From an uncultured Spirochaetales bacterium (GTDB taxonomy: Bacteria; Spirochaetota; Spirochaetia; Sphaerochaetales; Sphaerochaetaceae), in the NCBI GenBank assembly GCA_949288415.1, contig CASEKE010000010.1, positions 1,979 through 65,978 on the forward strand: a stretch of DNA of 64,000 nucleotides, written 5' to 3'. Shown one piece after another: positions 7,492 to 45,220 of this stretch (its first letter is position 1; every line of letters starts with the position of its first letter). The position numbers were made by a program, and so were the translations under genes. Under the pieces are notes generated by a model that did not search any database, had not been told where the DNA came from, and saw nothing but the letters and a program-made list of their open reading frames with translations.

Positions 7492-9648
7492 ATGGTCACA
7501 ATGAAAGACATTGCTAAAGAAGCAGGAGTATCCCATGGAACTGTTTCAAACGTACTAAACAAGACAGGTAAGGTCAGTTCTGACAAAATCAGGCGTGTCG
7601 AAGAAGCTGCAAAACGTCTTGGATACAAAGCAAATGTCCAGGCACAGATGCTGAAACTCGGAGGGGCACGAAATGTCGCACTTGTTCTTCCATCGATAAC
7701 CATCAAACACTTCTTCACTATCTACGAAACGCTGAGGAACGAGCTTGATAGATCGGAAATAGATCTTCAGCTCTATACTACGGAAGATATTCCAGCAATC
7801 GAACAGAAAATTCTCGACCGAATCTACGAAACACGTCCAGGGTTGATAATCAGCTGTTCTTCGATGAAACAGACTTCATCTTATCTCAACGACATTCCTG
7901 TAATTTTTATCGATCGTTTTCTCCCCAAGAATGGGAAAAACTTTTTTCATGCCGGATTTTCCTACTATGAAGCAGGAAAGGATATAGGAAAATATCTTCT
8001 GTCGAACAAAAAAAAGGAAATTGCCATTTTCGCATCATCATCGTCCTCGTTCGACTATACGCAATTCCAGCTTGGATTGTCGGAAGTTTTAGGATCTTCC
8101 TTTCCAATGGACTTTTATCTTTCCGATATAAAATTCATGATGGGCAAAGCTATGCAGCTTGCTTCGGAAGCCAGTCGTTACGACGCCATAATCGCCATGG
8201 ACTACAACAGAGCTCAAGCTCTAAGAATGGCAAACAACTACACGAAAACTATGGATTTTCCTGAGATTCTATGTATTGCGGACAACGACATGTTCGAGGA
8301 TTCATCATGCACCCTGTATCACCTCGATTACGGAAAGCTCGGAAGAAATATTGCAGGCATTGCCTCGTCATTCATCAAGGGAGGCGTTCCCCTGCATGAT
8401 CTTTTGATGAGGAATACCGGATTTCGCGGTAGGCCCTGTTTCCAGAGAAGAGACGGAGAAACCCTGTCGATATTGACTCTCGAGTCCCCGGCATCGGAAG
8501 CCCTGTCAAGACTTCTTCCCAAGTTCCAGGAAAAAACAGGCATAAAGGTCTGTCTTTCCTGTCTTCCATATGACGAACTTTACAGGACCATAAAAGAAGA
8601 TGGAAATGCCTCGTCCCGATACGATCTTATCCGTCTTGACATGGCATGGCTCCCTGAAATCGCAGAGTCAAAACTTCTTCCGTTATCAGATGCAAAAAGC
8701 GATTTGCAGGATATCTCCAGTTCTTTCATTCCTGAACTCAGCGACGAGTACAGCAAGGTAGATGGGACGATATACGCCCTTCCGTTCGATCCTTCTGTAC
8801 AAATTCTCTTTTATAACAGCGAAGCCTTTGAAAACAGTAGAATACAGCGTCTTTTCTATGAAACATGCAAAGAGAAGCTGGATGTGCCTTCGACCTTTGG
8901 AAAACACGATAAAGTTGCAGAGTTTTTTACAAGAAGTATCAATCCGGATTCTCCTGTCTCTTATGGAACAACGGTGACATGCGGGACAAGCGGTGTTGCA
9001 GCATGTGATTTCTTGCCTCGTCTGACAGAGGACAAATCCCATCTGGAAATAGCACAAATCTTTCTATCGACAAGTACCATGCAAGCTCTTGATGCCTACA
9101 AAGCCTCGTTTGAATATACAAGAAAAAATATCAATACCTGGTGGAAAAGCGCCATAGAAGATTTCAGCAACGGGGATATAGCCATGCTTACGGTATTCAT
9201 GAACCATGCATCCAAGATCACCAACAGCAAACATTCGAAGATCATTGGCAAGGTAGGATTTTCAAAGGTTCCTGGAGGTCATCCCCTTCTCGGAGGTGGA
9301 AGCATCGGCATAGGAAAGCATTCAAGGAAAATCGATCCGGCCATTCAGTTCCTCAAATGGGTATACAGTGACGAAATAGCGAGATTATACACATTTTTCG
9401 GCGGAATTTCTCCAAACGGAATTGTCTATGAAGATCCGGAGATACTTGGAATCTATCCATGGCTTTCCATAGCGAGGGACAGCTTCAGGGAAGGACGCAG
9501 GAGATTTGCAGATCCACTGGAAGCCAAGAATCAGAAAGCGCTCGAAGACGTTCTCGGAATTGCTGTAAGAAATGTCGTGCTTTCTTCGGAGACTGCAGAA
9601 TCGGCAATTGGCAAGGCAAAGAAAAAAATTTCCGAGATTCTCGGGTAA
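7492..9648 (+). CDS. LacI-family transcriptional regulator fused to a C-terminal solute-binding-protein-like domain
   Basis: N-terminal HTH (MKDIAKEAGVSHGTVSNVLNK) and a LacI-type sugar-binding core occupy about aa 1-330. About aa 340-718 resemble family-1 extracellular SBPs (KVCLSCLPYDELYRTI, DLIRLDMAWLPE). No signal peptide or TM segment. Confidence 0.8.
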   Translation: MVTMKDIAKEAGVSHGTVSNVLNKTGKVSSDKIRRVEEAAKRLGYKANVQAQMLKLGGARNVALVLPSITIKHFFTIYETLRNELDRSEIDLQLYTTEDIPAIEQKILDRIYETRPGLIISCSSMKQTSSYLNDIPVIFIDRFLPKNGKNFFHAGFSYYEAGKDIGKYLLSNKKKEIAIFASSSSSFDYTQFQLGLSEVLGSSFPMDFYLSDIKFMMGKAMQLASEASRYDAIIAMDYNRAQALRMANNYTKTMDFPEILCIADNDMFEDSSCTLYHLDYGKLGRNIAGIASSFIKGGVPLHDLLMRNTGFRGRPCFQRRDGETLSILTLESPASEALSRLLPKFQEKTGIKVCLSCLPYDELYRTIKEDGNASSRYDLIRLDMAWLPEIAESKLLPLSDAKSDLQDISSSFIPELSDEYSKVDGTIYALPFDPSVQILFYNSEAFENSRIQRLFYETCKEKLDVPSTFGKHDKVAEFFTRSINPDSPVSYGTTVTCGTSGVAACDFLPRLTEDKSHLEIAQIFLSTSTMQALDAYKASFEYTRKNINTWWKSAIEDFSNGDIAMLTVFMNHASKITNSKHSKIIGKVGFSKVPGGHPLLGGGSIGIGKHSRKIDPAIQFLKWVYSDEIARLYTFFGGISPNGIVYEDPEILGIYPWLSIARDSFREGRRRFADPLEAKNQKALEDVLGIAVRNVVLSSETAESAIGKAKKKISEILG

Positions 9649-9800: not shown

Positions 9801-10619
9801 ATGATCAAATATGAATTCAAAAAAGCCGACAATCTATGCGAAGGCGTAGAGAATCTTTACGAGATAGTCACTCTTCTCAGAAGTCCCGAAGGGTGCCCTT
9901 GGGACAGGAAACAGACGAACAAGTCGATTGCCGAAGACCTGATCGACGAGGCATATGAATATCAGGACGGAGTCCTGAGGCATTCCGTCGAATCGCAGCG
10001 CGAGGAGATTGGCGATGTGATGATAAACGTTTTCATGACGATGCTGATTCACAGCGAAAAAAACGAGTTCACTCCCGTCGATGCGCTCAATGAAGTATGC
10101 GAGAAGCTTGTCAGACGACATCCTCATGTCTTTTCATCAATCGAAGCTGCAAATGCCGAGGAGGCTCTTGGAGTCTGGAACAGCGTCAAGGAGAAAATTG
10201 AAGGGAGAAAGGAGAAGAAACACGATTTCTTCGAGCATATCCCGTCGAGTCTTCCGCCGCTGGAGGAAGCCTACGAGATACAGAAGAAGCTCAGGAAGGT
10301 CGGTTTCGACTGGACTGAAGTCCAGCCGGTCATAGAAAAGGTTCAGGAGGAGCTTGAAGAGCTTCTCAGGGCGATAGACAACGAGGACCAGGACAACATA
10401 GAGGAAGAAGTGGGAGACCTTCTATTTTCCGTCGTGAACCTCTCCCGTTTCCTCAAGGTACGTCCATCTACTGCAATGAGAAGATGCAACATCAAGGTTC
10501 GAAGCCGTTTCCAGAAACTATTCGATCTGGCTGAAGAAAGAGGAATTCCTCTGGACAAGGAACACTTTGCGCAGATGGACGCCCTGTGGGACGAAATCAA
10601 GGCTGCAGAGAGGTACTGA
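9801..10619 (+). CDS. mazG: Nucleoside triphosphate pyrophosphohydrolase MazG
   Basis: Two tandem MazG repeats (CPWDRKQT, EE.GDV/EEVGDLLF motifs). The track start 9783 is TTG, and the first ATG is at 9801. Confidence 0.88.
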   Translation: MIKYEFKKADNLCEGVENLYEIVTLLRSPEGCPWDRKQTNKSIAEDLIDEAYEYQDGVLRHSVESQREEIGDVMINVFMTMLIHSEKNEFTPVDALNEVCEKLVRRHPHVFSSIEAANAEEALGVWNSVKEKIEGRKEKKHDFFEHIPSSLPPLEEAYEIQKKLRKVGFDWTEVQPVIEKVQEELEELLRAIDNEDQDNIEEEVGDLLFSVVNLSRFLKVRPSTAMRRCNIKVRSRFQKLFDLAEERGIPLDKEHFAQMDALWDEIKAAERY

Positions 10620-11418: not shown

Positions 11419-11441
11419 CCATTTCCTCCTGCTTGGAAAAA

Positions 11442-11795
11442 AGATCAGGTCCCCGATAAGCCGAGTTCTGTTTATGTAATCATCTATCTCGGATAGCGGT
11501 TACCCGCTACCTCTAGCAGCCTACCCGTAACTATAGGCGGACAACCCAGTTACTGCTTGGCCTTGCACCTGACGAGGTTTACCATGCCATCCCTGTCACC
11601 AGGAATGCGGTGGGCTCTTGCCCCACCCTTTCACCCTTACCTTTCGGCGGTCTGCTTTCTGTTGCACTTTCTGTAGCATTGCTGCTCCTGGCCGTTAGCC
11701 AGCGTCATGTCCTGCGGTGCCCGGACTTTCCTCTAACCTGTAGCGATTACTTCGGAGGCCTGAAATTGCATAGTTCGATGAAGGCCGGAGATCAG
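11442..11795 (-). ncRNA. rnpB: RNase P RNA, bacterial type A
   Basis: The reverse complement carries GAGGAAAGTCCGGGC (P4), GGTAAGGGTGAAAGGGTG, GTGCAAGGCCAA, GGGTAGGCTGCT and ACAGAACTCGGCTTATCG. These are colinear with E. coli M1 RNA. Ends are approximate. Confidence 0.95.
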
Positions 11796-17040: not shown

Positions 17041-17481
17041 TCAGTTCTTCAAAATAATGTAGGCAGGTTCGATCTGATTGCTCTCGATGAGCTTTTCGAC
17101 CTCCTCTGCGGAATATCTGCGCCCCTTTCCGATGCCCGGACAGTTGCTCATCTCCTTCTTCCATGCCGACGGATCGTCGGCAAGCCCCTTCCAGAACGGG
17201 TATGTCGAACATTGATGCGGACGCACGTCGTAGATCGAGCAGCCGTAAGACCGAAGGAAGATGCAGTCGTAGTTGTCCCTCTCTTTGAGGGAGAACATGT
17301 AGCATGTGCCGTAATCGATCCTGCGGCAATAGATGGCCAGGAATTCCTCTTCCGTGACCCCGAGGTACGAAGCGGCCTTCTCTATGTCGGTCCTGGTCAG
17401 GAAAACATATCCCGGCTCGCCCGAGCAGCAATGCAGACATCGCTGGCAGGAAAATTGCAATTCTCTATCGCTTTTCTTCAT
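17041..17481 (-). CDS. YkgJ-family cysteine-cluster (Zn/Fe-binding) protein
   Basis: CxxCxxCC motif (SCQRCLHCCSG) plus GCSIYDVRPHQCSTYPFW. 146 aa. Confidence 0.8.
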   Translation of the reverse strand: MKKSDRELQFSCQRCLHCCSGEPGYVFLTRTDIEKAASYLGVTEEEFLAIYCRRIDYGTCYMFSLKERDNYDCIFLRSYGCSIYDVRPHQCSTYPFWKGLADDPSAWKKEMSNCPGIGKGRRYSAEEVEKLIESNQIEPAYIILKN

Positions 17482-17521: not shown

Positions 17522-17603
17522 TGGAGAGAGAAGGATTCGAACCTTCGAAGGCATAGCCGTCAGATTTACAGTCTGATCCCTTTGGCCGCTCGGGAACCTC
17601 TCC
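17522..17603 (-). tRNA. tRNA-Tyr (anticodon GTA)
   Basis: The reverse complement GGAGAGGTTCCCGAGCGGCCAAAGGGATCAGACTGTAAATCTGACGG...GGTTCGAATCCTTCTCTCTCCA is nearly colinear with E. coli tRNA-Tyr, including the long variable arm. CCA is not encoded. Confidence 0.93.
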
Positions 17604-31288: not shown

Positions 31289-32925
31289 CAGAGCAGTACC
31301 ACCTTCTTAACGTCCTTGTAGGCCTTCTCCCTGAGTGCCTTCACGCCCTCGTCATCGAGATAGGAATCGAAGTTGGTCATTCTGTCGATAAGTCCCGAAG
31401 GCGTGAACTCTATGATTCTGTTCGCGACGGAATCGACGAACTGATGGTCGTGGGAATTGAAGAGGATCACCCCCTTGAACTCTATCAGACCATTGTTCAG
31501 AGCCTGTATAGCCTCGAGATCAAGATGGCTAGTAGGCTCGTCGAATATGAGGCAGTTCGCCCCCTCGAGCATCATTTTCGCAAGAACGACGCGCACCCTT
31601 TCCCCTCCGGAGAGGACCTGGCAATTCTTCAATGCCTCGTCTCCGGAAAAAAGCATCCTTCCGAGGAACGATCTCACATACGTGTCATCGTCCTCCTTGC
31701 TGTACTGCTGGAGGTAGTCCGCGATGCTTTCGTCCTCCTTGAACATCTTGCTATTGTCCTTCGGAAAATATGAAAGGCTTGTCGTGACTCCCCACGTATA
31801 GCTTCCCTCGTCAGGCTCCATCTCTCCGGCAAGAATCTGGAACAGGACGGTCTTGGCGTAGTGGTTGGGGCCGACGAACGCGACCTTGTCCGAAGGATTT
31901 ATCGTAAGGGAGAGATTGTCAAGAATCTTCACTCCGTCGATAGTCTTGGACAGATTCTTTATCTCGAGAGCCATCTTGCCGATTTCCCTGTTCGGCTTGA
32001 AAGCGACATAAGGAAATCTTCTGCTCGAGGGCTTGATGTCGTCGATCGTCAGTTTGTCGATGAGCTTCTTGCGGCTTGTCGCCTGCTTGGCCTTCGCTAC
32101 GTTTGAACTGAAGCGTTGTATGAACTCCTTCAGTTCGGCGATCTTCTCGTCCCTTCTCTTCTTCTCGTCCTTCATCTGCTTGAGCGCAAGCTGGCTGGAC
32201 ATGTACCAGAAATCGTAGTTTCCGACGTACAGCTGGATCTTTCCGAAATCGATGTCGCAAATGTGCGTGCACACAGAATTCAGGAAGTGTCTGTCGTGCG
32301 ATACAACTATGACTGTGTTGTTGAAGTTCTCAAGATAGTCCTCGAGCCAATGGATGCTTTCAAGATCGAGGTGGTTTGTAGGCTCGTCCAGGAGCAGGAT
32401 ATCGGGATTTCCGAAGAGAGCCTGGGCAAGAAGGACGCGCACCTTCAGGTTGTCCTCGATCTCTTCCATCCTCTTCTCATGGAGGGACACAGGAATTCCC
32501 AGACCATCGAGCATCTGCGCCGCATTCGCCTCGGCTTCCCAGCCTCCGAGCTCGGCGAATTCGCCTTCCAGCTCGGCAGCTCTGATTCCATCTTCCTCGC
32601 TGAAGTCGGACTTGGCATAGATCTCGTCCCTTTCCTTCATGACGTCGTAAAGCTTCTTGAAACCCATTATAACAGTATCGATCACCCGGTATTCGTTGAA
32701 CGCGAAGTGATCCTGCCTGAGCGTCGTCATTCTCTCGCCGGGAGTAATGATGATCTCGCCCGTGTCAGGCTCGATCTCGCCGGAAAGGATCTTCAGGAAT
32801 GTCGACTTTCCTGCTCCGTTTGCACCGATTATTCCATAGCAGTTCCCGGGAGTGAACTTGATGTTGACTTCCTTGAAGAGTACCTGGGTCCCATATGAGA
32901 GCGATATGTTGCTTGCTGTAATCAT
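31288..32925 (-). CDS. ABC-F family ATPase (YbiT-like)
   Basis: Start at ATG 32925 with an AGGTGG RBS. Two ABC cassettes (GANGAGKST; LSGGE; LLLDEPTNHLD, then a second set) and no TM domain. The N-terminus is colinear with E. coli YbiT. Confidence 0.9.
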   Translation of the reverse strand: MITASNISLSYGTQVLFKEVNIKFTPGNCYGIIGANGAGKSTFLKILSGEIEPDTGEIIITPGERMTTLRQDHFAFNEYRVIDTVIMGFKKLYDVMKERDEIYAKSDFSEEDGIRAAELEGEFAELGGWEAEANAAQMLDGLGIPVSLHEKRMEEIEDNLKVRVLLAQALFGNPDILLLDEPTNHLDLESIHWLEDYLENFNNTVIVVSHDRHFLNSVCTHICDIDFGKIQLYVGNYDFWYMSSQLALKQMKDEKKRRDEKIAELKEFIQRFSSNVAKAKQATSRKKLIDKLTIDDIKPSSRRFPYVAFKPNREIGKMALEIKNLSKTIDGVKILDNLSLTINPSDKVAFVGPNHYAKTVLFQILAGEMEPDEGSYTWGVTTSLSYFPKDNSKMFKEDESIADYLQQYSKEDDDTYVRSFLGRMLFSGDEALKNCQVLSGGERVRVVLAKMMLEGANCLIFDEPTSHLDLEAIQALNNGLIEFKGVILFNSHDHQFVDSVANRIIEFTPSGLIDRMTNFDSYLDDEGVKALREKAYKDVKKVVLL

Positions 32926-33029: not shown

Positions 33030-33101
33030 TAGTTCCTAGGGGAATCGAACCCCTATTTAGAGACTGAGAATCTCCCGTCCTAACCGTTAGACGAAGGAAC
33101 C
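33030..33101 (-). tRNA. tRNA-Glu (anticodon CTC), copy 1
   Basis: The reverse complement is GGTTCCTTCGTCTAACGGTTAGGACGGGAGATTCTCAGTCTCTAAATAGGGGTTCGATTCCCCTAGGAACTA. It folds as a cloverleaf with a G1-U72 wobble. Confidence 0.9.
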
Positions 33102-33104
33102 GTA

Positions 33105-33175
33105 CTGGGATGGAGGGATTCGAACCCCCAAAGGCAGAACCAGAATCTGCAGTGTTACCATTACACTACATCCCA
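33105..33175 (-). tRNA. tRNA-Gln (anticodon CTG)
   Basis: The reverse complement is TGGGATGTAGTGTAATGGTAACACTGCAGATTCTGGTTCTGC...GGGGGTTCGAATCCCTCCATCCCAG. Similar to E. coli tRNA-Gln. Confidence 0.9.
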
Positions 33176-33253
33176 AAGATACCTCACGTATGGTACGTAT
33201 TTTGCGCCAGTCTGTCAACAGCCGAGACGCTTTTTTTTCCATCCGTCGAGCTA

Positions 33254-33325
33254 TAGTTCCTAGGGGAATCGAACCCCTATTTAGAGACTGAGAATCTCCC
33301 GTCCTAACCGTTAGACGAAGGAACC
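33254..33325 (-). tRNA. tRNA-Glu (anticodon CTC), copy 2
   Basis: 72-nt sequence identical to copy 1 at 33030-33101. Confidence 0.9.
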
Positions 33326-38648: not shown

Positions 38649-39521
38649 CTAGCCGGCCATCGTATAGCATCCTAGCTCACGTTCGTCCGCACTCTCTCTG
38701 AGCTTTTCCAATGCTCTCTTCTCTATCTGGCGGATTCTCTCCTTGGTAAGATTGAATCTGACGCCGATCTCCTTGAGACTCATCGGCTTCTCGCCGGTAA
38801 GGCCGTATCTGAGCTCGATGATCTCCTTCTCCTTGTCCGTCAGAGTTCCGAGAAGCTCGCCTACCTCGTGCTCGAGGCTCTCTCCGATGACCTCGTCCTC
38901 CGGAGTGGCGTTCGGATCCGTAAGGAATTCGGTCAGCGTCGATTCGCTGTCGTCCTTGCCGCTGATCGTGGCATCCAGATTCACCATATCCTGGCTTATC
39001 CGGAGCAGATCCTTGACAAGCGCCTCGTCAAGACCGGTCTCGTCCGCTATGTCCGCCACCTCGGGAACATCAGTCTGCTTCTTGTGCATCAGATCCCTCT
39101 GCGCCTTCAGTATCTGTACCAGCTCGTTGCTTCTGTTGAGCGGAAGCCTCACCGGGCGAGCCTTTTCGCTTATGGCCTTCATTATGGACTGTCTGATCCA
39201 CCATACAGCGTAGGATATGAAATGGTATCCCTTCTCCGGCTCGAATTTCTCCAGAGCGGTTATAAGACCTATGTTACCTTCGTTGATCAGGTCGGAAAGA
39301 GGGAGCCCCTGTCCCTGGTATTTCTTTGCAACCGTGACTACGAAACGAAGATTTGCGTTGATGATTCTATCGAACGCCTTTCTGTCTCCATTTTTGGCCT
39401 TGAGAGCAAGCTCATACTCCTCGTCGTAGCTGAGCATCGGAATCTTGTTGATCTCGGAAAAATAGATACCGAGAAGTTCGTCATCCGAATCCATGAAAGT
39501 TGCAATATTTTCTTTTGACAT
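38649..39521 (-). CDS. Group-2 sigma-70 family sigma factor (RpoS-like)
   Basis: 290 aa with regions 1.2, 2, 3 and 4 (NLRFVVTVAKKY, ISYAVWWIRQSIMKAI, SLKEIG...TKERIRQIEKRALEKLR) and no region 1.1 or NCR. The layout resembles spirochaetal RpoS. Confidence 0.85.
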   Translation of the reverse strand: MSKENIATFMDSDDELLGIYFSEINKIPMLSYDEEYELALKAKNGDRKAFDRIINANLRFVVTVAKKYQGQGLPLSDLINEGNIGLITALEKFEPEKGYHFISYAVWWIRQSIMKAISEKARPVRLPLNRSNELVQILKAQRDLMHKKQTDVPEVADIADETGLDEALVKDLLRISQDMVNLDATISGKDDSESTLTEFLTDPNATPEDEVIGESLEHEVGELLGTLTDKEKEIIELRYGLTGEKPMSLKEIGVRFNLTKERIRQIEKRALEKLRESADERELGCYTMAG

Positions 39522-39549
39522 CTTCGTGTCTCCTTGTACTTAAGGAAAA

Positions 39550-39564
39550 GCAAGGAGCGTGCCA
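39550..39564 (-). promoter_or_regulatory. Sigma-54 (RpoN) -24/-12 promoter
   Basis: On minus, TTGGCACGCTCCTTGCTT fits TGGCACG-N4-TTGCW with GG-N10-GC spacing. Intergenic. The -12 element lies about 29 nt upstream of ATG 39521, with an AAGGAG RBS between. Confidence 0.75.
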
Positions 39565-39686
39565 ACTTGGATAAAAAAATTATAATTCTTTATAATATAA
39601 GTAATTATTTGATACAATACAAATGTGGAGGAAGTTTGTAAAAGTGTCAAAAGGACACATTTTCTTTTTTCATCCCCTGTTGCGGG

Positions 39687-40082
39687 TCATTTTGATACTT
39701 TTCTTGGTTCCTCGATTTCTTCCGTGTCATTTTGAACCGGAAACACTATTTTCACGTTCTCCAGCAATCTCTTCCTTCCCGAGGAGGTGACGTTGAATGG
39801 TGAAGATTCCATGTCGGATACGAACTCGTCGTAACTTTCCTTGATCAGATCCGATACCATGTCTCCCTCTGGGAGAGAGAGGAAACACTTCTTCTTATTG
39901 GAAAAGTATCTCGACAGCTGGAGCTTGTAGAAGAGGATGAACTCGATGGAACAGGCAAGGTCATCGATCCTGTCGAGGAAGGCGCAGCAGTAGTCGTCCA
40001 CCGCCTCCTCGAGTCGTCCCTCTCTGCTCATCCTGTTTGCTCTGTCGTAAAAGAAAATGGATCGTTTCAGGTTCATATGCAT
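39687..40082 (-). CDS. Hypothetical protein (131 aa)
   Basis: ORF with protein-like composition, same strand and upstream of the RpoS-like gene. No recognisable domain. Confidence 0.5.
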   Translation of the reverse strand: MHMNLKRSIFFYDRANRMSREGRLEEAVDDYCCAFLDRIDDLACSIEFILFYKLQLSRYFSNKKKCFLSLPEGDMVSDLIKESYDEFVSDMESSPFNVTSSGRKRLLENVKIVFPVQNDTEEIEEPRKVSK

Positions 40083-40226
40083 CTTCTCTTATCAAGAAAA
40101 TAATAAATGATAGGAAAAAGAAAAGAGGGAAGATGGAATTTTTTTCACAAGTGAGAAGTTTTTTCACTCCCTTTCATGCGTCTTTGCGGTCAAATTGACA
40201 CTATTGACGAAAAACACATATCGTCC

Positions 40227-40296: not shown

Positions 40297-40560
40297 ATGA
40301 AAATCATTCCACTTAACGACAGAGTGCTCCTCAAGAGCGCAAAGATGGAGGAAAGGACCGCAAGCGGCATCTACATCCCCCAGGCATCACAGGAAAAGAC
40401 ACAGATTGCAGAGGTCATTGCAATCGGTACCGATTCGGCCATCAACGTGAAGGTCGGCCAGAAGGTGCTTCATGAGAAGTACGTCGGAACCGAGGTCAAG
40501 GACGGAGGAGACGATTACCTTCTCGTCAAGGCCGAGCAGATTCTCGCAGTGATCGAATAA
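40297..40560 (+). CDS. groES: Co-chaperonin GroES
   Basis: Start at ATG 40297 (AGAGGTGA RBS). MKIIPLNDRVLLK...ASGIYIP...G...V.VGQKVL...Y.G.EV is canonical GroES. 87 aa. Confidence 0.95.
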   Translation: MKIIPLNDRVLLKSAKMEERTASGIYIPQASQEKTQIAEVIAIGTDSAINVKVGQKVLHEKYVGTEVKDGGDDYLLVKAEQILAVIE

Positions 40561-40616: not shown

Positions 40617-42686
40617 TCAGTAAAGGAAGTGTTCTATCTTGCTTCCGAGGTTGTCGATTGCAGCATCCTCCGGGCAGTAGCATTCCGGCAGAGAGGACAG
40701 AAGAAGCCGTCCGTAGCTCTTCTGCAGTATCCTCGAGTCAAGGATGATCACGATGCCCTTGTCGTTCTCGCTCCTTATCAGACGGCCAAGTCCCTGCTTC
40801 AGCCTTATGGCGGCTTCGGGAACGGTGAGCTCCAGGAACGGGAATTTCCCCTCCTTCTCGATGTGCGTACACCTCGCCTGGTATATCGGTGTCGTAGGAA
40901 CCTGGAACGGAAGCTTGACGATGATGACTAGCCGGAGCGTATTGCCCGGAGCATCTATTCCTTCCCAGAACGAGGATGTGGCAAAAAGCGATGAGTCCTC
41001 CTCTTTCTTGAACCTGCCCAGAAGCGCGTTCCTCGACATTCCGCCGCCTTGACGGTAAAGGACGAAATCCGGCAGCATCTCGCTGACGCGCGCGTGGACT
41101 TCCTCCAGCATCTTGCGCGAAGTGAAGAGCACGAGCGCACCGCCTCCGCTGTACAGTATGGCCTCCTTGATCGCGGATGCTGTGTACTCCACATATTCCT
41201 CGCTCATGTCGTTGCGGTATGCAATCCCGTCCCTTGGAAGCAGGAGCATGAGGTTCTCCTTGTATCTGAACGGAGATTCGAAGACTCCCTCGAGCGTATC
41301 TTTGTCAAGGCCCAGCTTGCCTTTGAAGAATTCGAAGCTCCGGTCCAGAGACAGCGTGGCGGAACAGAAAATCGCGCTCGAGATGTTGTCGAGGACGACG
41401 GTGCGGAGTATCGGACCGACCTCCATGGGAGAAAGAGTCAGCTCGTAGTCAGCATTTCTTACGCCTTGCGCGTGTGCGATGCGGCGATCGAAGTCGCCGA
41501 ATCGTATGAAGGAACGAAGTGTATCGGAAAGATAGGAAAGACTCTCCGCTGCGCGGGCGATGTTCTGGGCATGTAGCTGGTCCTCATCCGGGATGTTCTC
41601 GGCAACATGCAGACCGGCAAGCCTGGTCGAGAGTTCAGCCAGCTCTGCGGCGACCGCTTCCCCCTCGGAAAGGGCGCTTCGGTAGCGGGAAAACGAGTTC
41701 TCGTCAAAGAGTATGTCGTCCTGCCCCGTCGCTCCGAGTAGGATGGTGAGCCGTTCGTCGAACTGCTTCGCATCGCCGAGCGTCCTGCGTATCTCGTCCA
41801 TGGCGATCCGCGTTGTCCCTTTGATTCTCTCGTAGACGCTCATGTGCTCGAGTATCGAGCAGGAGAGCTTTGAATCCTTTGCAAGGAGAAAATCCAGGGC
41901 TCTCTCTACTCCGGCAAGGCTGTACGAATCGGAAAGAACGTCGGTGGCCTCGCTCTCGAGATGATGAGCCTCGTCGAGTATGACAGCGTCGTAAGACGGT
42001 AGGATCGCATCCTCGTCGAACGGTATGGAACACTCGGCCCTATGCTTGCCATCGATGAGGAACAGATGGTGGTTGGTCACAAGAAGCCGGGCCTTCATGG
42101 CATTCCGTCTCGCCTTGAAGTAGAAGCATTCCAGATAGTACGGACACTTGGGACCTCTGCAGGTCTTCTCGTCGCTCGCGACAAGTACGAAGTTCCTCAT
42201 TGCACCGGCATCGGCAATGTCGCCTTTTTCCCCCGTCACAGTTTTCCGGATCCATGCTCCAAGCGCCGCCAAGCCTCCGCTTCCTTCTTCCCCGAGAAGA
42301 GGATTTTGCTCCTCGAGCTCCCTGTATCTGGCTATGCAGGCATAGTTGCTCCTGCCGAAGAGGACAGCGACCTCCTCGTCGAAGCCTAGAGCGTCGGAAA
42401 GGAACGGAATGTCCTTCTCGTAGAGCTGCTTCTCGAGCGTTATCGTGCTAGTGGCGACGACGATTTTCCTTCTGGGATCGTCCAGGATCCTGAGCATGGC
42501 CGGAGCCAGATATGCGAAAGATTTGCCGGTCCCGGTCCCTGCCTCGATTATCGCATTTTGTCTCTGGTCGAACGCAGTCTCGACGAGTTCGGCCATCTCG
42601 AGCTGCGACGATCTGAAGCAATAGGAATCAAGCCGGTCGTCGAGTATGCCTCCGGGGGAGAATATGTTCTCCAAGACCTCACTCAT
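40617..42686 (-). CDS. dinG: ATP-dependent DNA helicase, DinG/Rad3 (XPD-like) family
   Basis: Start at ATG 42686, an 8-nt overlap with the upstream stop. Walker A GTGTGKS, DEAH box ILDEAHHLE, an Fe-S-type Cys cluster (CRGPKCPYYLEC) and a C-terminal helicase domain. Confidence 0.85.
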   Translation of the reverse strand: MSEVLENIFSPGGILDDRLDSYCFRSSQLEMAELVETAFDQRQNAIIEAGTGTGKSFAYLAPAMLRILDDPRRKIVVATSTITLEKQLYEKDIPFLSDALGFDEEVAVLFGRSNYACIARYRELEEQNPLLGEEGSGGLAALGAWIRKTVTGEKGDIADAGAMRNFVLVASDEKTCRGPKCPYYLECFYFKARRNAMKARLLVTNHHLFLIDGKHRAECSIPFDEDAILPSYDAVILDEAHHLESEATDVLSDSYSLAGVERALDFLLAKDSKLSCSILEHMSVYERIKGTTRIAMDEIRRTLGDAKQFDERLTILLGATGQDDILFDENSFSRYRSALSEGEAVAAELAELSTRLAGLHVAENIPDEDQLHAQNIARAAESLSYLSDTLRSFIRFGDFDRRIAHAQGVRNADYELTLSPMEVGPILRTVVLDNISSAIFCSATLSLDRSFEFFKGKLGLDKDTLEGVFESPFRYKENLMLLLPRDGIAYRNDMSEEYVEYTASAIKEAILYSGGGALVLFTSRKMLEEVHARVSEMLPDFVLYRQGGGMSRNALLGRFKKEEDSSLFATSSFWEGIDAPGNTLRLVIIVKLPFQVPTTPIYQARCTHIEKEGKFPFLELTVPEAAIRLKQGLGRLIRSENDKGIVIILDSRILQKSYGRLLLSSLPECYCPEDAAIDNLGSKIEHFLY

Positions 42687-44043
42687 TCTCTTCCTCTCCG
42701 AAGTACTCCTTGAGTTTCCTGTGAAGCGTCTTGCGACCGATGTCGAGCATGTCCGCGGCCTTTGTCTTGTTGCCACCGCAGAAGGCTATCGAGGCCAGGA
42801 TGATCTTCTTCTCGGCGTCCTGCATCGTCGTCGGGAAGTCGATGCTTATCGAGCTGTCCTTCTCTCCCTTCGAAATCTGCGGAGGAAGGTCCTCGAGTTG
42901 AATTATGTTGCCTTTGGCAAGGACGACGGAGCTCTCGATCGTGTTCTTCAGTTCCCTTATGTTGCCCGGCCACGAATAAGCCATCAGAGCCTTACGCGCC
43001 GCAGGACTTATCCCCTGGATTGTCCTTCCGTCCTCCTTGTTGAACTCCTTAAGGAAATCGATGGTAAGAAGCTCGATGTCTTCCTTTCTCTCTCTGAGAG
43101 GCGGAACCTCGATATGGACGACGTTGAGACGGTAGTACAGATCCTCCCTGAATCGACCGTTTCTGACCTCATCCTGAAGATTCCTGTTCGTCGCCGCAAT
43201 GACGCGCACGTCCACACTGACCGTCTTCTCTCCGCCGACACGCTCGAACTCCCTCTCCTGGAGCACGCGGAGTATCTTGACCTGCGTAGTAAGGTCTATC
43301 TCCCCTATCTCGTCCAGGAATATCGTTCCGCCGTCCGCAAGTTCGAACCGTCCCTTCTTCTGTGAGACAGCACCGGTGAATGCCCCTTTCTCGTGCCCGA
43401 ATAACTCGCTCTCCAGAAGCGTCGGTGAAAGGGACGCACAATGTACCTTCACGAAGGGTTTGTCCTTGCGATTCGATAGATTTACGACAGCGTTGGCGAC
43501 AAGTTCCTTGCCGGTTCCGCTCTCTCCCGTTATGAGAACGCTTGCCCTGGACTGGGCGACCTGCTCTATCGTCTGCATCATCTGGGCGACCTTACCGCTT
43601 TTTCCGATGATGCGCGAATACTCCTGTTGCTTCTTGAGCTTGTCTATCTCCTCCGAAAGCTTTCTGTTCTGCTCCTGAAGCATGCTTGCGGAGATGGACT
43701 TCTTGACGACGAGGAGAAGTTTGTCGAGATCGACCGGCTTGGTGAAGAAATCGACTGCTCCGTCCCTCATTGTCTCTACCGCGGTCTCGATGGTCCCATG
43801 GCCTGTGAGCACGATGACTGGAAGCGTCGGATATGCGGCACTTATCTTCTTCAGAAGCTCGTAGCCATCCATTCCCGGCATCCTGAGGTCGGTTATCACC
43901 AGATCGATGCTGTTCTTGTTTATCGCATTCCAGGCATCCAGTCCGTTCTCGGCGGTCATTACATCATAGCCTTCGTCTTCGAAGGCGAGCTTTAGTCCCT
44001 TGAGGATGTTTATCTCGTCGTCGGCAATGAGCAGAGTGGCCAA
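42679..44043 (-). CDS. Sigma-54-dependent response regulator (NtrC family enhancer-binding protein)
   Basis: The likely start is TTG 44043 (GGGAGGA RBS, 1 nt after the kinase stop). REC domain (LLIADDE...ITDLRMPGMDG), AAA+ with GAFTGA, and a C-terminal Fis-type HTH. Confidence 0.9.
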   Translation of the reverse strand: MATLLIADDEINILKGLKLAFEDEGYDVMTAENGLDAWNAINKNSIDLVITDLRMPGMDGYELLKKISAAYPTLPVIVLTGHGTIETAVETMRDGAVDFFTKPVDLDKLLLVVKKSISASMLQEQNRKLSEEIDKLKKQQEYSRIIGKSGKVAQMMQTIEQVAQSRASVLITGESGTGKELVANAVVNLSNRKDKPFVKVHCASLSPTLLESELFGHEKGAFTGAVSQKKGRFELADGGTIFLDEIGEIDLTTQVKILRVLQEREFERVGGEKTVSVDVRVIAATNRNLQDEVRNGRFREDLYYRLNVVHIEVPPLRERKEDIELLTIDFLKEFNKEDGRTIQGISPAARKALMAYSWPGNIRELKNTIESSVVLAKGNIIQLEDLPPQISKGEKDSSISIDFPTTMQDAEKKIILASIAFCGGNKTKAADMLDIGRKTLHRKLKEYFGEEENE

Positions 44044-44044
44044 T

Positions 44045-45220
44045 TCAATCCTCCCTTCCGGTCCCAGCAAGGACCTTTCTTTCGCTTGTAGGAATCGGCA
44101 GCTTGATCGTGAACTTGGTTCCGACCCCTTCCTTGCTGTCGAGAGAAATCTCTCCGGAATGGGCATTTACTATCTTCAGAACCGCCGTGAGGCCGAGTCC
44201 GGTTCCCTTCTCGTTCTTCGTCGTGTAGTACGGTTCGAACACGCGCTTCTGCAGCTCTTCCGACATTCCGACCCCGTTGTCCTCGACAGTGAGCTTCACG
44301 TAGTTGCCATCGCATGCAGTAGCAAGCATCAGCACTCCTCCGTCCTTCATCGCATAGAAGCTGTTGTTGACGAGGTTGAGCAGTGCGCGTCGCATAAGCT
44401 TCCGGTCGATCATGAGATTCGGGAGAAACTTCTCCAGATGCAGATCGATCCTTATGTTCTTGCTGGCTGCCTCGACGGCCACGAAGTCGCTGAGCTCGAG
44501 CACAGTATCGTTCAGACTATCCATCTTGAGCCTGACATCCATCGGCTTGACTGCAAACAGGAAGTCGACCGCGATGTCGTTAAGCCTCTCGGTCTCCTGC
44601 TCGATTATGTCGATGAACTCTTCGGCCTTGTCCAGATTCTTTCCGCTCTTGATGGCCTTTCGGAGAAGGGATGTGTATATCTTCATGGCTGCAAGAGGGT
44701 TCTTTATCTCATGCGCGACTCCGGCCGCCATTGTCGTCATCGAAGCAAGCGTTTCCGTACTTCTGAGCTTCATCTCCTTCTTGAGTTCCGCGCTGATGTC
44801 CCTGAGCCGGATGTCCATGTATTCCCTGTCCGAGAGCATGAAAGGGAAGAAGGAGAACCTGATCGTCTTTATCTCCCCTTCGCCGAAAGAGAAATCCCTG
44901 TCGCTGAGGCTCTCCTCGCCACTTATCACCTTCGAGAACCAGTTGCGTATGTCGCTGTCCTTTATGCCGTCCAGGACGTTCCTTCCCTGGGAGCAAAAAA
45001 GACTCTGCCTCGGAAGCAGCTTGGCTATGGTCCGGTTCGCAAGGACGATGGTCCCTGTTCCTTTCTCTATTATTATGTGCCCGTCCTCGACCCTGTCGAA
45101 GGCCTCGAGAAGAAGATCGTAATCATCCAAAGCTCCGGAGACTATCTCCTGGAACTGGTTGTACTCTATGACCTTGCCGTCCTGCATTATCTTCTTCAAT
45201 AGCTTCATGGACATATTCAT
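44045..45220 (-). CDS. Cytoplasmic PAS-domain sensor histidine kinase
   Basis: No TM segments. PAS-like N-terminal half, H-box AAGVAHEIKNPL, and HATPase N and G boxes (NLVNNSFYAM, DNGVGM, GTGLGL). Confidence 0.9.
   Translation of the reverse strand: MNMSMKLLKKIMQDGKVIEYNQFQEIVSGALDDYDLLLEAFDRVEDGHIIIEKGTGTIVLANRTIAKLLPRQSLFCSQGRNVLDGIKDSDIRNWFSKVISGEESLSDRDFSFGEGEIKTIRFSFFPFMLSDREYMDIRLRDISAELKKEMKLRSTETLASMTTMAAGVAHEIKNPLAAMKIYTSLLRKAIKSGKNLDKAEEFIDIIEQETERLNDIAVDFLFAVKPMDVRLKMDSLNDTVLELSDFVAVEAASKNIRIDLHLEKFLPNLMIDRKLMRRALLNLVNNSFYAMKDGGVLMLATACDGNYVKLTVEDNGVGMSEELQKRVFEPYYTTKNEKGTGLGLTAVLKIVNAHSGEISLDSKEGVGTKFTIKLPIPTSERKVLAGTGRED

Follow-up and report, generated by a model that had tools for sequence, protein, structure and literature searches.

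A predicted sigma-54 promoter with a conserved, 40-bp-phased putative enhancer upstream of a group-2-like sigma factor gene in an uncultured spirochaete

Whether a spirochaete outside Borrelia places a second sigma factor under the command of sigma-54, and through which DNA elements it might do so, is the question raised by a locus in a 64,000-nucleotide stretch (the window) from an uncultured Spirochaetales bacterium of the Sphaerochaetaceae (contig CASEKE010000010.1, positions 1,979 to 65,978). A sequence-only reading of the window had pointed to a consensus-perfect sigma-54 promoter on the minus strand, directly upstream of a gene for an RpoS-like sigma factor, and had likened the arrangement to the Rrp2-RpoN-RpoS cascade of Borrelia burgdorferi. 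We read positions 39548-39738 as an enhancer-dependent sigma-54 promoter with its complete control region, serving a single-gene unit for a group-2-like sigma factor, that is, as a canonical, enhancer-dependent version of the Borrelia cascade, and put the probability of this reading at about 0.85. The elements concerned, including three putative upstream activating sequences (UAS1 to UAS3), are as follows.

38603-38555, minus strand: intrinsic terminator, a long GC-rich hairpin followed by U8, 3' of the sigma factor gene.
38649-39521, minus strand: gene for a sigma-70-family sigma factor of 290 aa, group-2-like, with Pfam regions 1.2, 2, 3 and 4 and no region 1.1.
39535-39530, minus strand: ribosome-binding site AAGGAG, 8 nt ahead of the ATG at 39521-39519.
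39536-39539, minus strand: predicted transcription start, placed by the spacing rule 11-14 nt past the GC doublet.
39548-39565, minus strand: predicted sigma-54 -24/-12 promoter TTGGCACGCTCCTTGCTT (18-mer), with GG at 39563-39562 and GC at 39551-39550.
39583-39607: motif B, a 25-bp AT-rich palindrome TAATTACTTATATTATAAAGAATTA (consensus TAATTCCTTATAnTATAAGGAATTA) between enhancer and promoter.
39644-39658: UAS1 GTGTCCTTTTGACAC, with one mismatch, its centre about 113 nt 5' of the predicted start.
39684-39698: UAS2 GTATCAAAATGACCC, at position -134, overlapping the stop codon of a 131-aa open reading frame (ORF).
39724-39738: UAS3 GGTTCAAAATGACAC (minus strand), with two mismatches to GTGTCAnnnTGACAC, inside the 3' end of the same ORF.

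The 16-nt core of the promoter, TGGCACGCTCCTTGCT (39549-39564, minus strand), matches TGGCACG-N4-TTGCW exactly, and its GG and GC doublets stand 10 nt apart within YTGGCACG-N4-TTGCW. The earlier claim that this is the sole full consensus match in an intergenic, correctly oriented position holds for the window as a whole: the exact motif occurs once on both strands of the 64 kb, and 0 of 100 dinucleotide-preserving shuffles of the window yield it. The 18-mer had been assigned to 39549-39566, one base off its actual position at 39548-39565. The flanks of the promoter also fit the extended Barrios consensus mrNrYTGGCACG-N4-TTGCWNNw. The element is intergenic, points toward the sigma gene and lies 27 nt 5' of the ATG at 39521; the ribosome-binding site was found between the two, as had been proposed, and a GGAG-type site stands at the same place in the loci of relatives. 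On the minus strand the control region reads ...ccaagTTGGCACGCTCCTTGCTTttccttaagtacAAGGAGacacgaagATG, and the leader would be about 15-18 nt long and unstructured. When one mismatch is permitted, one additional site appears in the window (17444-17459, plus strand; chance expectation 0.36). This site, TGGCAGGAAAATTGCA, adjoins a tRNA-Tyr gene (17522-17603, minus strand), has no enhancer palindromes nearby and is probably a chance match.

Comparison with related loci provides strong evidence, in the form of phylogenetic footprinting, that the promoter is functional, as the sequence-only reading had supposed. The comparative set consisted of the best 80 loci from one pattern-based scan of species-representative genomes, 55 of spirochaete type and 25 from Bacteroidota, Ignavibacteria and related groups; none is from Borrelia, and Treponema denticola itself lies outside the retrieved loci. 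The best relatives of the locus and its proteins in the genome scan were uncultured gut Spirochaetales and Candidatus Ornithospirochaeta (Sphaerochaetaceae), with a top identity of 72%. Among the 55 spirochaete-type loci and the window, 52 carry a -24/-12 element within 300 nt 5' of the sigma ORF, and these carriers are labelled Sphaerochaeta, Pleomorphochaeta, Treponema, Breznakiella, Brachyspira and Brevinematales. The strict form TGGCAY-N5-TTGCW stands at the orthologous site in 46 of the 52, compared with two matches elsewhere in the same loci (893 kb, both strands), and no sigma-54 motif was found upstream of the homologues in the 25 Bacteroidota, Ignavibacteria and related loci. The GG, the GC and the C and A of TGGCA are invariant, and a T precedes TGG in 48/52 loci. 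Between the GC doublet and the ATG lies a short stretch of similar length from locus to locus (median 32 nt); in Brachyspira and Brevinematales 50-70 nt separate the element from the start of the ORF. The exceptions are L001, with TTTC at -12, L016, which has a CGGTAT variant, L043 and L046, in which no -24/-12 element was found upstream of the sigma ORF, and L048, a locus without upstream sequence.

One locus of the set, L015 (CAVEBK010000024.1), is labelled "uncultured Collinsella sp." and carries a spirochaete-type sigma gene (55% identity) together with a single enhancer site and the sigma-54 promoter; the contig was probably mis-binned.

With TGGCA as the common anchor of all upstream regions, a recurrent 15-bp palindrome came to light upstream of the promoter, GTGTCAwwwTGACAC (GTGTCAnnnTGACAC; extended consensus tGTGTCAwwwTGACAC). 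The inverted repeat GTGTC-N5-GACAC had already been placed correctly at 39644-39658 and suggested as a possible activator site; the comparison supports this suggestion and makes the repeat one of three conserved copies, which start at 39644, 39684 and 39724, in exact 40-bp steps. In the clade of the window the sites are fixed at -94, -134 and -174 from TGGCA, with centres about 113, 153 and 193 nt 5' of the predicted start. The UAS1 position -94 is shared with six loci and positions -93 to -95 with ten, and the UAS3 position -174 is also occupied in L002, L004, L006 and L007. At least one site at three or fewer mismatches is present in 49/52 loci, and of the 48 pairs of adjacent copies across loci, 40 have a spacing of exactly 40 bp. 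Sites with at most two mismatches occur at 4.4 per kb in the upstream 270 nt and at 0.034 per kb elsewhere, an approximately 130-fold enrichment. Column conservation in an alignment of 12 sequences is 0.76-0.83 for the five motifs and 0.46-0.59 for the spacers; the mean majority fraction of the UAS2 columns is 0.83 compared with 0.46-0.48 in the flanking spacers, and UAS1 likewise reaches 0.83.

These multiple dyad-symmetric, helically phased sites, lying about 80-200 bp 5' of the -24/-12 element, have the form of an NtrC-family enhancer, the 6-3-6 dyad geometry, copy number, helical phasing and distance of which all fit the palindromes described here. Being 40 bp apart, the sites lie on roughly one face of the helix. 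We therefore predict, on the evidence of sequence conservation, that the palindromes are the conserved enhancer of the sigma-54 promoter. Since UAS2 and UAS3 lie in a conserved ORF, the 3' stretch of that ORF is doubly constrained. The palindromes were also considered as terminators of the upstream ORF and rejected in this role: their stems are only 5-6 bp long, they come as three copies at a fixed 40-bp phase, one of them lies within coding sequence, and Treponema loci that lack such an ORF have these sites as well. A further palindrome-like (motif-A-like) site at 40187-40201 coincides in part with the -35 box of the groES promoter and probably has no connection with the array.

The product of the downstream gene had been described as a 290-aa, RpoS-like group-2 sigma factor. 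Its length, its membership of the sigma-70 family and its group-2-like character stand, whereas the name RpoS is not supported: the score against the RpoS equivalog models falls short of their cut-offs (TIGR02394, 260.6 bits against 378.7; NF004207, 251.2 against 394). The NCBIfam RpoS, RpoD and SigA models match about equally, all below their equivalog cut-offs, and PDB chains of SigA and RpoS also score about equally against the protein; because of these similar scores, we call the protein group-2-like and not RpoS. The terminator hairpin has a minimum free energy of -35.3 kcal/mol for a 101-nt stretch (z-score -4.4), and since hairpin and U8 follow the gene, the sigma gene appears to be a single-gene transcription unit. 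In the pattern-based scan, the nearest relatives outside the spirochaetes (L050-L080) come from Ignavibacteria and Bacteroidota; these sigma factors, with about 290 aa and 43-48% identity, have no sigma-54 promoter and are presumably short primary sigma factors.

A kinase and a GAFTGA-containing activator had been noted only 3 kb away, and both are present.

42679-44043, minus strand: NtrC/AtoC-type response regulator of 454 aa (from the probable TTG start), with the Pfam domains REC, Sigma54_activat, AAA_lid and HTH_8.
44045-45220, minus strand: histidine kinase (HisKA, HATPase_c), presumed partner of the regulator, with a 150-aa uncharacterised N-terminal sensor region.

The regulator combines a REC domain, an AAA+ domain with GAFTGA (at 43386) and a C-terminal Fis-type helix-turn-helix (HTH), as expected of an enhancer-binding protein; Walker A, Walker B and the HTH are intact, and it is the only GAFTGA protein in the 64 kb. 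Its longest ORF (42679-44166) overlaps the kinase gene by about 120 nt (44041-44166), and judging from the sequence its start is most likely the TTG at 44043 behind a GGGAGG ribosome-binding site, not the ATG at 44166; the kinase stop codon lies 1 nt before this TTG. AtoC is the best NCBIfam match of the regulator, below the equivalog cut-off. The kinase had been taken for a PAS kinase, a detail that was not borne out: Pfam detects no PAS domain even at E<=1, and NCBIfam AtoS is the only alignment that covers its N-terminal part. The regulator is syntenic with the sigma gene in 15 Sphaerochaetaceae loci (62-79% identity), and the whole cluster of kinase, regulator, helicase, 131-aa ORF and sigma gene is strictly syntenic in the same number of loci of this family. 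In Borrelia, too, the kinase/regulator pair and rpoS are only a few genes apart. Francke et al. place Rrp2 in the AtoC class of enhancer-binding proteins (PMC3162934).

In the mechanism that we propose, sigma-54 holoenzyme would form a closed complex on TTGGCACG-N4-TTGCT, and the neighbouring kinase would phosphorylate the regulator encoded 3 kb upstream. Dimers of an NtrC/AtoC-type regulator, most likely this neighbouring phosphorylated one, would occupy the three 15-bp palindromes and assemble there into an active AAA+ ring. Motif B, centred near -57, would bend the DNA or bind a bending or co-regulatory protein and so let the ring reach the promoter, where it would contact the holoenzyme at -24/-12 and open the promoter by ATP hydrolysis. 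Transcription would begin at about 39537, with a very short unstructured leader, and end at the hairpin at 38603-38555. The new sigma factor would then redirect core RNA polymerase, the whole forming a cascade of two steps in which sigma-54 leads to a second sigma factor.

Several observations weigh against this reading, or against parts of it. L001, the closest NCBI relative, has TTTC instead of TTGC at -12. No terminator was found between the 131-aa ORF and the promoter, so read-through may also feed the sigma gene. The kinase/regulator pair is absent within 10 kb in the Treponema loci, although promoter and palindromes are present there, and the assignment of the palindromes to the neighbouring regulator thus draws on proximity in a single family. 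The recognition helix of the regulator, IGRKTLHRKL, is conserved but generic for its family. Finally, the RpoN box (RRT[VI]xKYR) was not found in the six frames of the window and the 80 flanks, so that we infer sigma-54 in this genome from the activator alone; enhancer-binding proteins and sigma-54 co-occur almost always (PMC3162934).

The L001 promoter itself (about 9960-9976) reads TGGCACGTTTTTTTCA, with TC in place of the otherwise invariant GC at -12; its enhancer sites are perfect and its sigma factor is 72% identical to that of the window. From the sequence, the deviation could reflect a weakened promoter or an assembly error.

The alternative that survives best concerns motif B. Within the window this 25-bp element has a single match, with none expected by chance. 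At four or fewer mismatches it is found upstream of the promoter in 18 loci, compared with four matches elsewhere in the loci, and it is detected in 18-24 of the 52 loci overall. Its position is -42/-43 in Sphaerochaetaceae and -41 to -73 in Treponema. Lying between enhancer and promoter, motif B occupies the classical place of IHF-type bending sites. The same location of the bend is given in the introduction of PMC3037356. We consider that either a bending protein or a second regulator may bind motif B. A match to motif B with three mismatches, AATTTCTTATTGTATATAGAATT, also occurs at about 10975 in L001, roughly 100 nt past the sigma stop codon, and is one of the four outside promoter regions.

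Motif B might instead be the operator of a sequence-specific second regulator, required or repressing and BosR-like, and not a passive bend or an IHF/HU site. The dyad is perfect or near-perfect in several loci (12 of 12 arm positions are paired in L034 and L051) and is conserved in two orders, always between the enhancer and -24, and in Borrelia BosR binds directly beside the -24/-12 element of rpoS (PMC3037356). Nevertheless, by sequence comparison motif B matches neither the Fur box, the Per box nor the BosR direct repeat TAAATTAAAT, none of the genes nearby was identified as a Fur-family member, the location is the classical one for bending sites, and just 18-24 loci carry the motif. In the Treponema loci, no regulator gene for motif B adjoins the sigma gene, the neighbours being only TPR proteins, groES and small uncharacterised ORFs. 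We consider an operator in this strict sense less likely than not.

A second alternative accepts the palindromes as an enhancer but has them bound by another enhancer-binding protein or transcription factor, while the neighbouring pair controls something else. Treponema, Brachyspira and Brevinematales keep the promoter, and mostly the palindromes, without the pair within 10 kb; the generic HTH points the same way, and no second palindrome array was found near the regulator operon, so that nothing suggests autoregulation. However, no GAFTGA protein other than the neighbouring regulator was found in the window, the order from kinase to sigma gene is strictly kept in Sphaerochaetaceae, and a 6-3-6 palindrome with an A/T centre is the site geometry of the NtrC family. 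These sequence features make it probable that the neighbouring regulator binds the enhancer palindromes, and a different binder appears unlikely.

In a third alternative, the housekeeping holoenzyme mainly transcribes the sigma gene, from a weak sigma-70-type promoter or by read-through from the 131-aa ORF, with sigma-54 as a conditional add-on. The sequence-only reading had noted a sigma-70-like element, TTGTAT-17-TATAAA, as a possible second promoter; these hexamers are readable in the sequence, but they fall below the threshold of a sigma-70 scan and are not a conserved -35/-10 pair, TATAAA being the right arm of motif B. On the strand of the sigma gene the scan returned only TTTACA-17-TATTGT (39642-39614). 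Both hexamer pairs, the missing terminator past the 131-aa ORF and a conserved CTACATAWW block about 17-20 nt after a TTGACA within UAS1 would favour such transcription. In Borrelia, a second, long rpoS transcript arises from an upstream promoter; PMC1976401 gives a scheme of the promoters. Against it, neither hexamer pair is conserved as -35 and -10, whereas the 25-bp palindrome and the -24/-12 element are, and the sigma-70 matches reach 9/12 or worse. A sigma-70 promoter was accordingly rejected as the main explanation, the hexamers being below threshold and the -35 and the pair not conserved; predominant housekeeping transcription is improbable, somewhat more so than a different enhancer-binding protein, and it is compatible with enhancer-dependent control by sigma-54 and does not exclude it.

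The CTACATAWW block lies at 39622-39630 (minus strand; alignment A1 columns about 152-160), some 17-20 nt downstream of UAS1, and was seen in Sphaerochaetaceae loci only. By analogy with glnAp1, it is tempting to speculate that this block and the TTGACA inside UAS1 form a weak sigma-70 or autoregulatory promoter that is occluded by the activator.

That the -24/-12 match is a functionless chance occurrence, as might be argued for one short motif in a single window in which no rpoN gene is seen, is effectively refuted by the related loci, in which the motif recurs at the same position (46 strict cases among 52 carriers, from several spirochaete families, against two in 1.8 Mb of control sequence), as well as opposed by the shuffles, none of which matches, and by the phased enhancer that accompanies the promoter.

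The genes around the control region add two further features.

39687-40082, minus strand: the 131-aa ORF, directly upstream of the sigma gene, the 3' end of which (last 20 codons) carries UAS2 and UAS3.
40297-40560, plus strand: a solitary groES (Cpn10) with no groEL beside it, divergent from the 131-aa ORF and the sigma unit.

On the strand of the sigma gene the upstream order is a 235-aa ORF, cvpA, holB, the kinase, the regulator, a DinG/YoaA helicase and the 131-aa ORF. The last of these has no Pfam or NCBIfam match; tblastn finds it at the same position in 12 Sphaerochaetaceae loci with 36-55% identity, and it could conceivably take part in control of the sigma factor. In the Treponema locus L026, too, the sigma gene has groES (9237-9641, minus strand) as its divergent neighbour. 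Rfam and tRNA scans found nothing relevant near the locus. Elsewhere in the window they returned an RNase P RNA (11441-11763, minus strand, 281 bits) and a tRNA cluster Glu-Gln-Glu (33030-33325, minus strand); an ARAGORN tRNA call at 32422-32513 (minus strand), with a two-base anticodon and inside a 568-aa ORF, is probably a false positive.

Transcription of rpoS in B. burgdorferi proceeds from a -24/-12 promoter and requires both RpoN and Rrp2 (PMC1976401, PMC3037356). The likeness to this cascade that had been proposed from the window is supported in function and design, and the analogy concerns these two only. In both cases a sigma-54 promoter lies directly 5' of a short, group-2-like sigma-70-family gene, within the same phylum; a few genes away lies the gene for a regulator of the NtrC/AtoC class, next to that for a kinase, and an extra cis element stands beside -24/-12 (BosR sites in Borrelia, the 25-bp palindrome here). 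The two differ in the enhancer: Rrp2 of Borrelia shows no binding to the 238 bp ahead of rpoS, where an activator site is not detectable, and works independently of an enhancer (PMC1976401), whereas the three phased palindromes here predict a classical enhancer, and a conserved array of this kind is not the picture of Borrelia-type, enhancer-independent activation. The Borrelia promoter lies 62 bp before the ATG, with the start 14 nt past the GC doublet (PMC1976401), in contrast to 27 nt between promoter and ATG here, and rpoS follows flgJ, in contrast to the 131-aa ORF and divergent groES of the present locus. BosR binds TAAATTAAAT repeats around the Borrelia rpoS promoter (PMC3037356); this repeat is not present in 39540-39740, where the 25-bp palindrome occupies the corresponding zone.

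The enterobacterial glnAp2/NtrC system shares with the locus several dyad sites for a Fis-type HTH dimer, 100-200 bp upstream and on one helical face, with activation through DNA looping, and possibly also a weak sigma-70 promoter that overlaps the enhancer, like glnAp1. NtrC binds TGCACC-N5-GGTGCA; the half-site here is GTGTCA in contrast to TGCACC, the spacing is 40 bp in contrast to about 32 bp, and the target is a sigma factor gene and not a metabolic one. Sigma-54-dependent sigma genes are also represented by fliA in the flagellar hierarchies of Vibrio and Pseudomonas. In enterobacteria, sigma-54 and an enhancer-binding protein turn on a second sigma factor in the case of rpoH (PMC3162934). 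The design principle of fliA and rpoH, in which sigma-54 with an enhancer-binding protein activates a second sigma factor, is the same as that proposed here, but their products are group-3 sigma factors with known regulons, whereas the present one is group-2-like. Within the spirochaetes, Hpk2-Rrp2 of T. denticola (TDE1970/TDE1969) is likewise a kinase with a predicted sigma-54 enhancer-binding response regulator, and in our set other Treponema loci have the promoter and the palindromes described here in front of their orthologous sigma gene. According to a 2025 paper, T. denticola Rrp2 "remains unstudied" (PMC12070737).

The locus belongs to a known kind of system, and beyond that it yields a defined enhancer motif as well as evidence of a widespread occurrence of the cascade in the phylum. 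In the searchable literature we found no report of a cascade from sigma-54 to a second sigma factor in Sphaerochaeta or other spirochaetes outside Borrelia, although older in-silico notes in subscription journals may exist. For the window itself, the outcome is a clear functional annotation of a 190-bp control region. Two concrete cis elements, the 40-bp-phased palindromic enhancer and the 25-bp AT-rich dyad, are now on offer, and they make approachable the questions of which sites Rrp2-type regulators bind, why Borrelia Rrp2 is independent of an enhancer and what the treponemal Rrp2 proteins target.

As a tentative extension, doubtful in its full form, the locus might preserve the ancestral, enhancer-dependent form of the cascade, common to Sphaerochaetaceae, Treponema and Breznakiella, with at least the promoter also in Brachyspira and Brevinematales. 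Borrelia Rrp2 would then have lost its enhancer, a derived state; motif B would be the docking site of an obligatory co-regulator, the counterpart of BosR, and GTGTCAnnnTGACAC would be the long-sought DNA site of Rrp2-type regulators, including those of T. denticola and T. pallidum.

The Lyme-disease spirochaete has the RpoN-RpoS cascade as its central virulence switch, and abstracts in the Borrelia literature term this cascade "novel" or "distinctive" (PMC2940757, PMC4683003). An almost identical arrangement precedes the homologous sigma gene in spirochaetes from gut, rumen and termites, in Brachyspira and in Brevinematales. This similarity across spirochaete lineages suggests that the phylum has long possessed the cascade, which would then be no invention of Borrelia.

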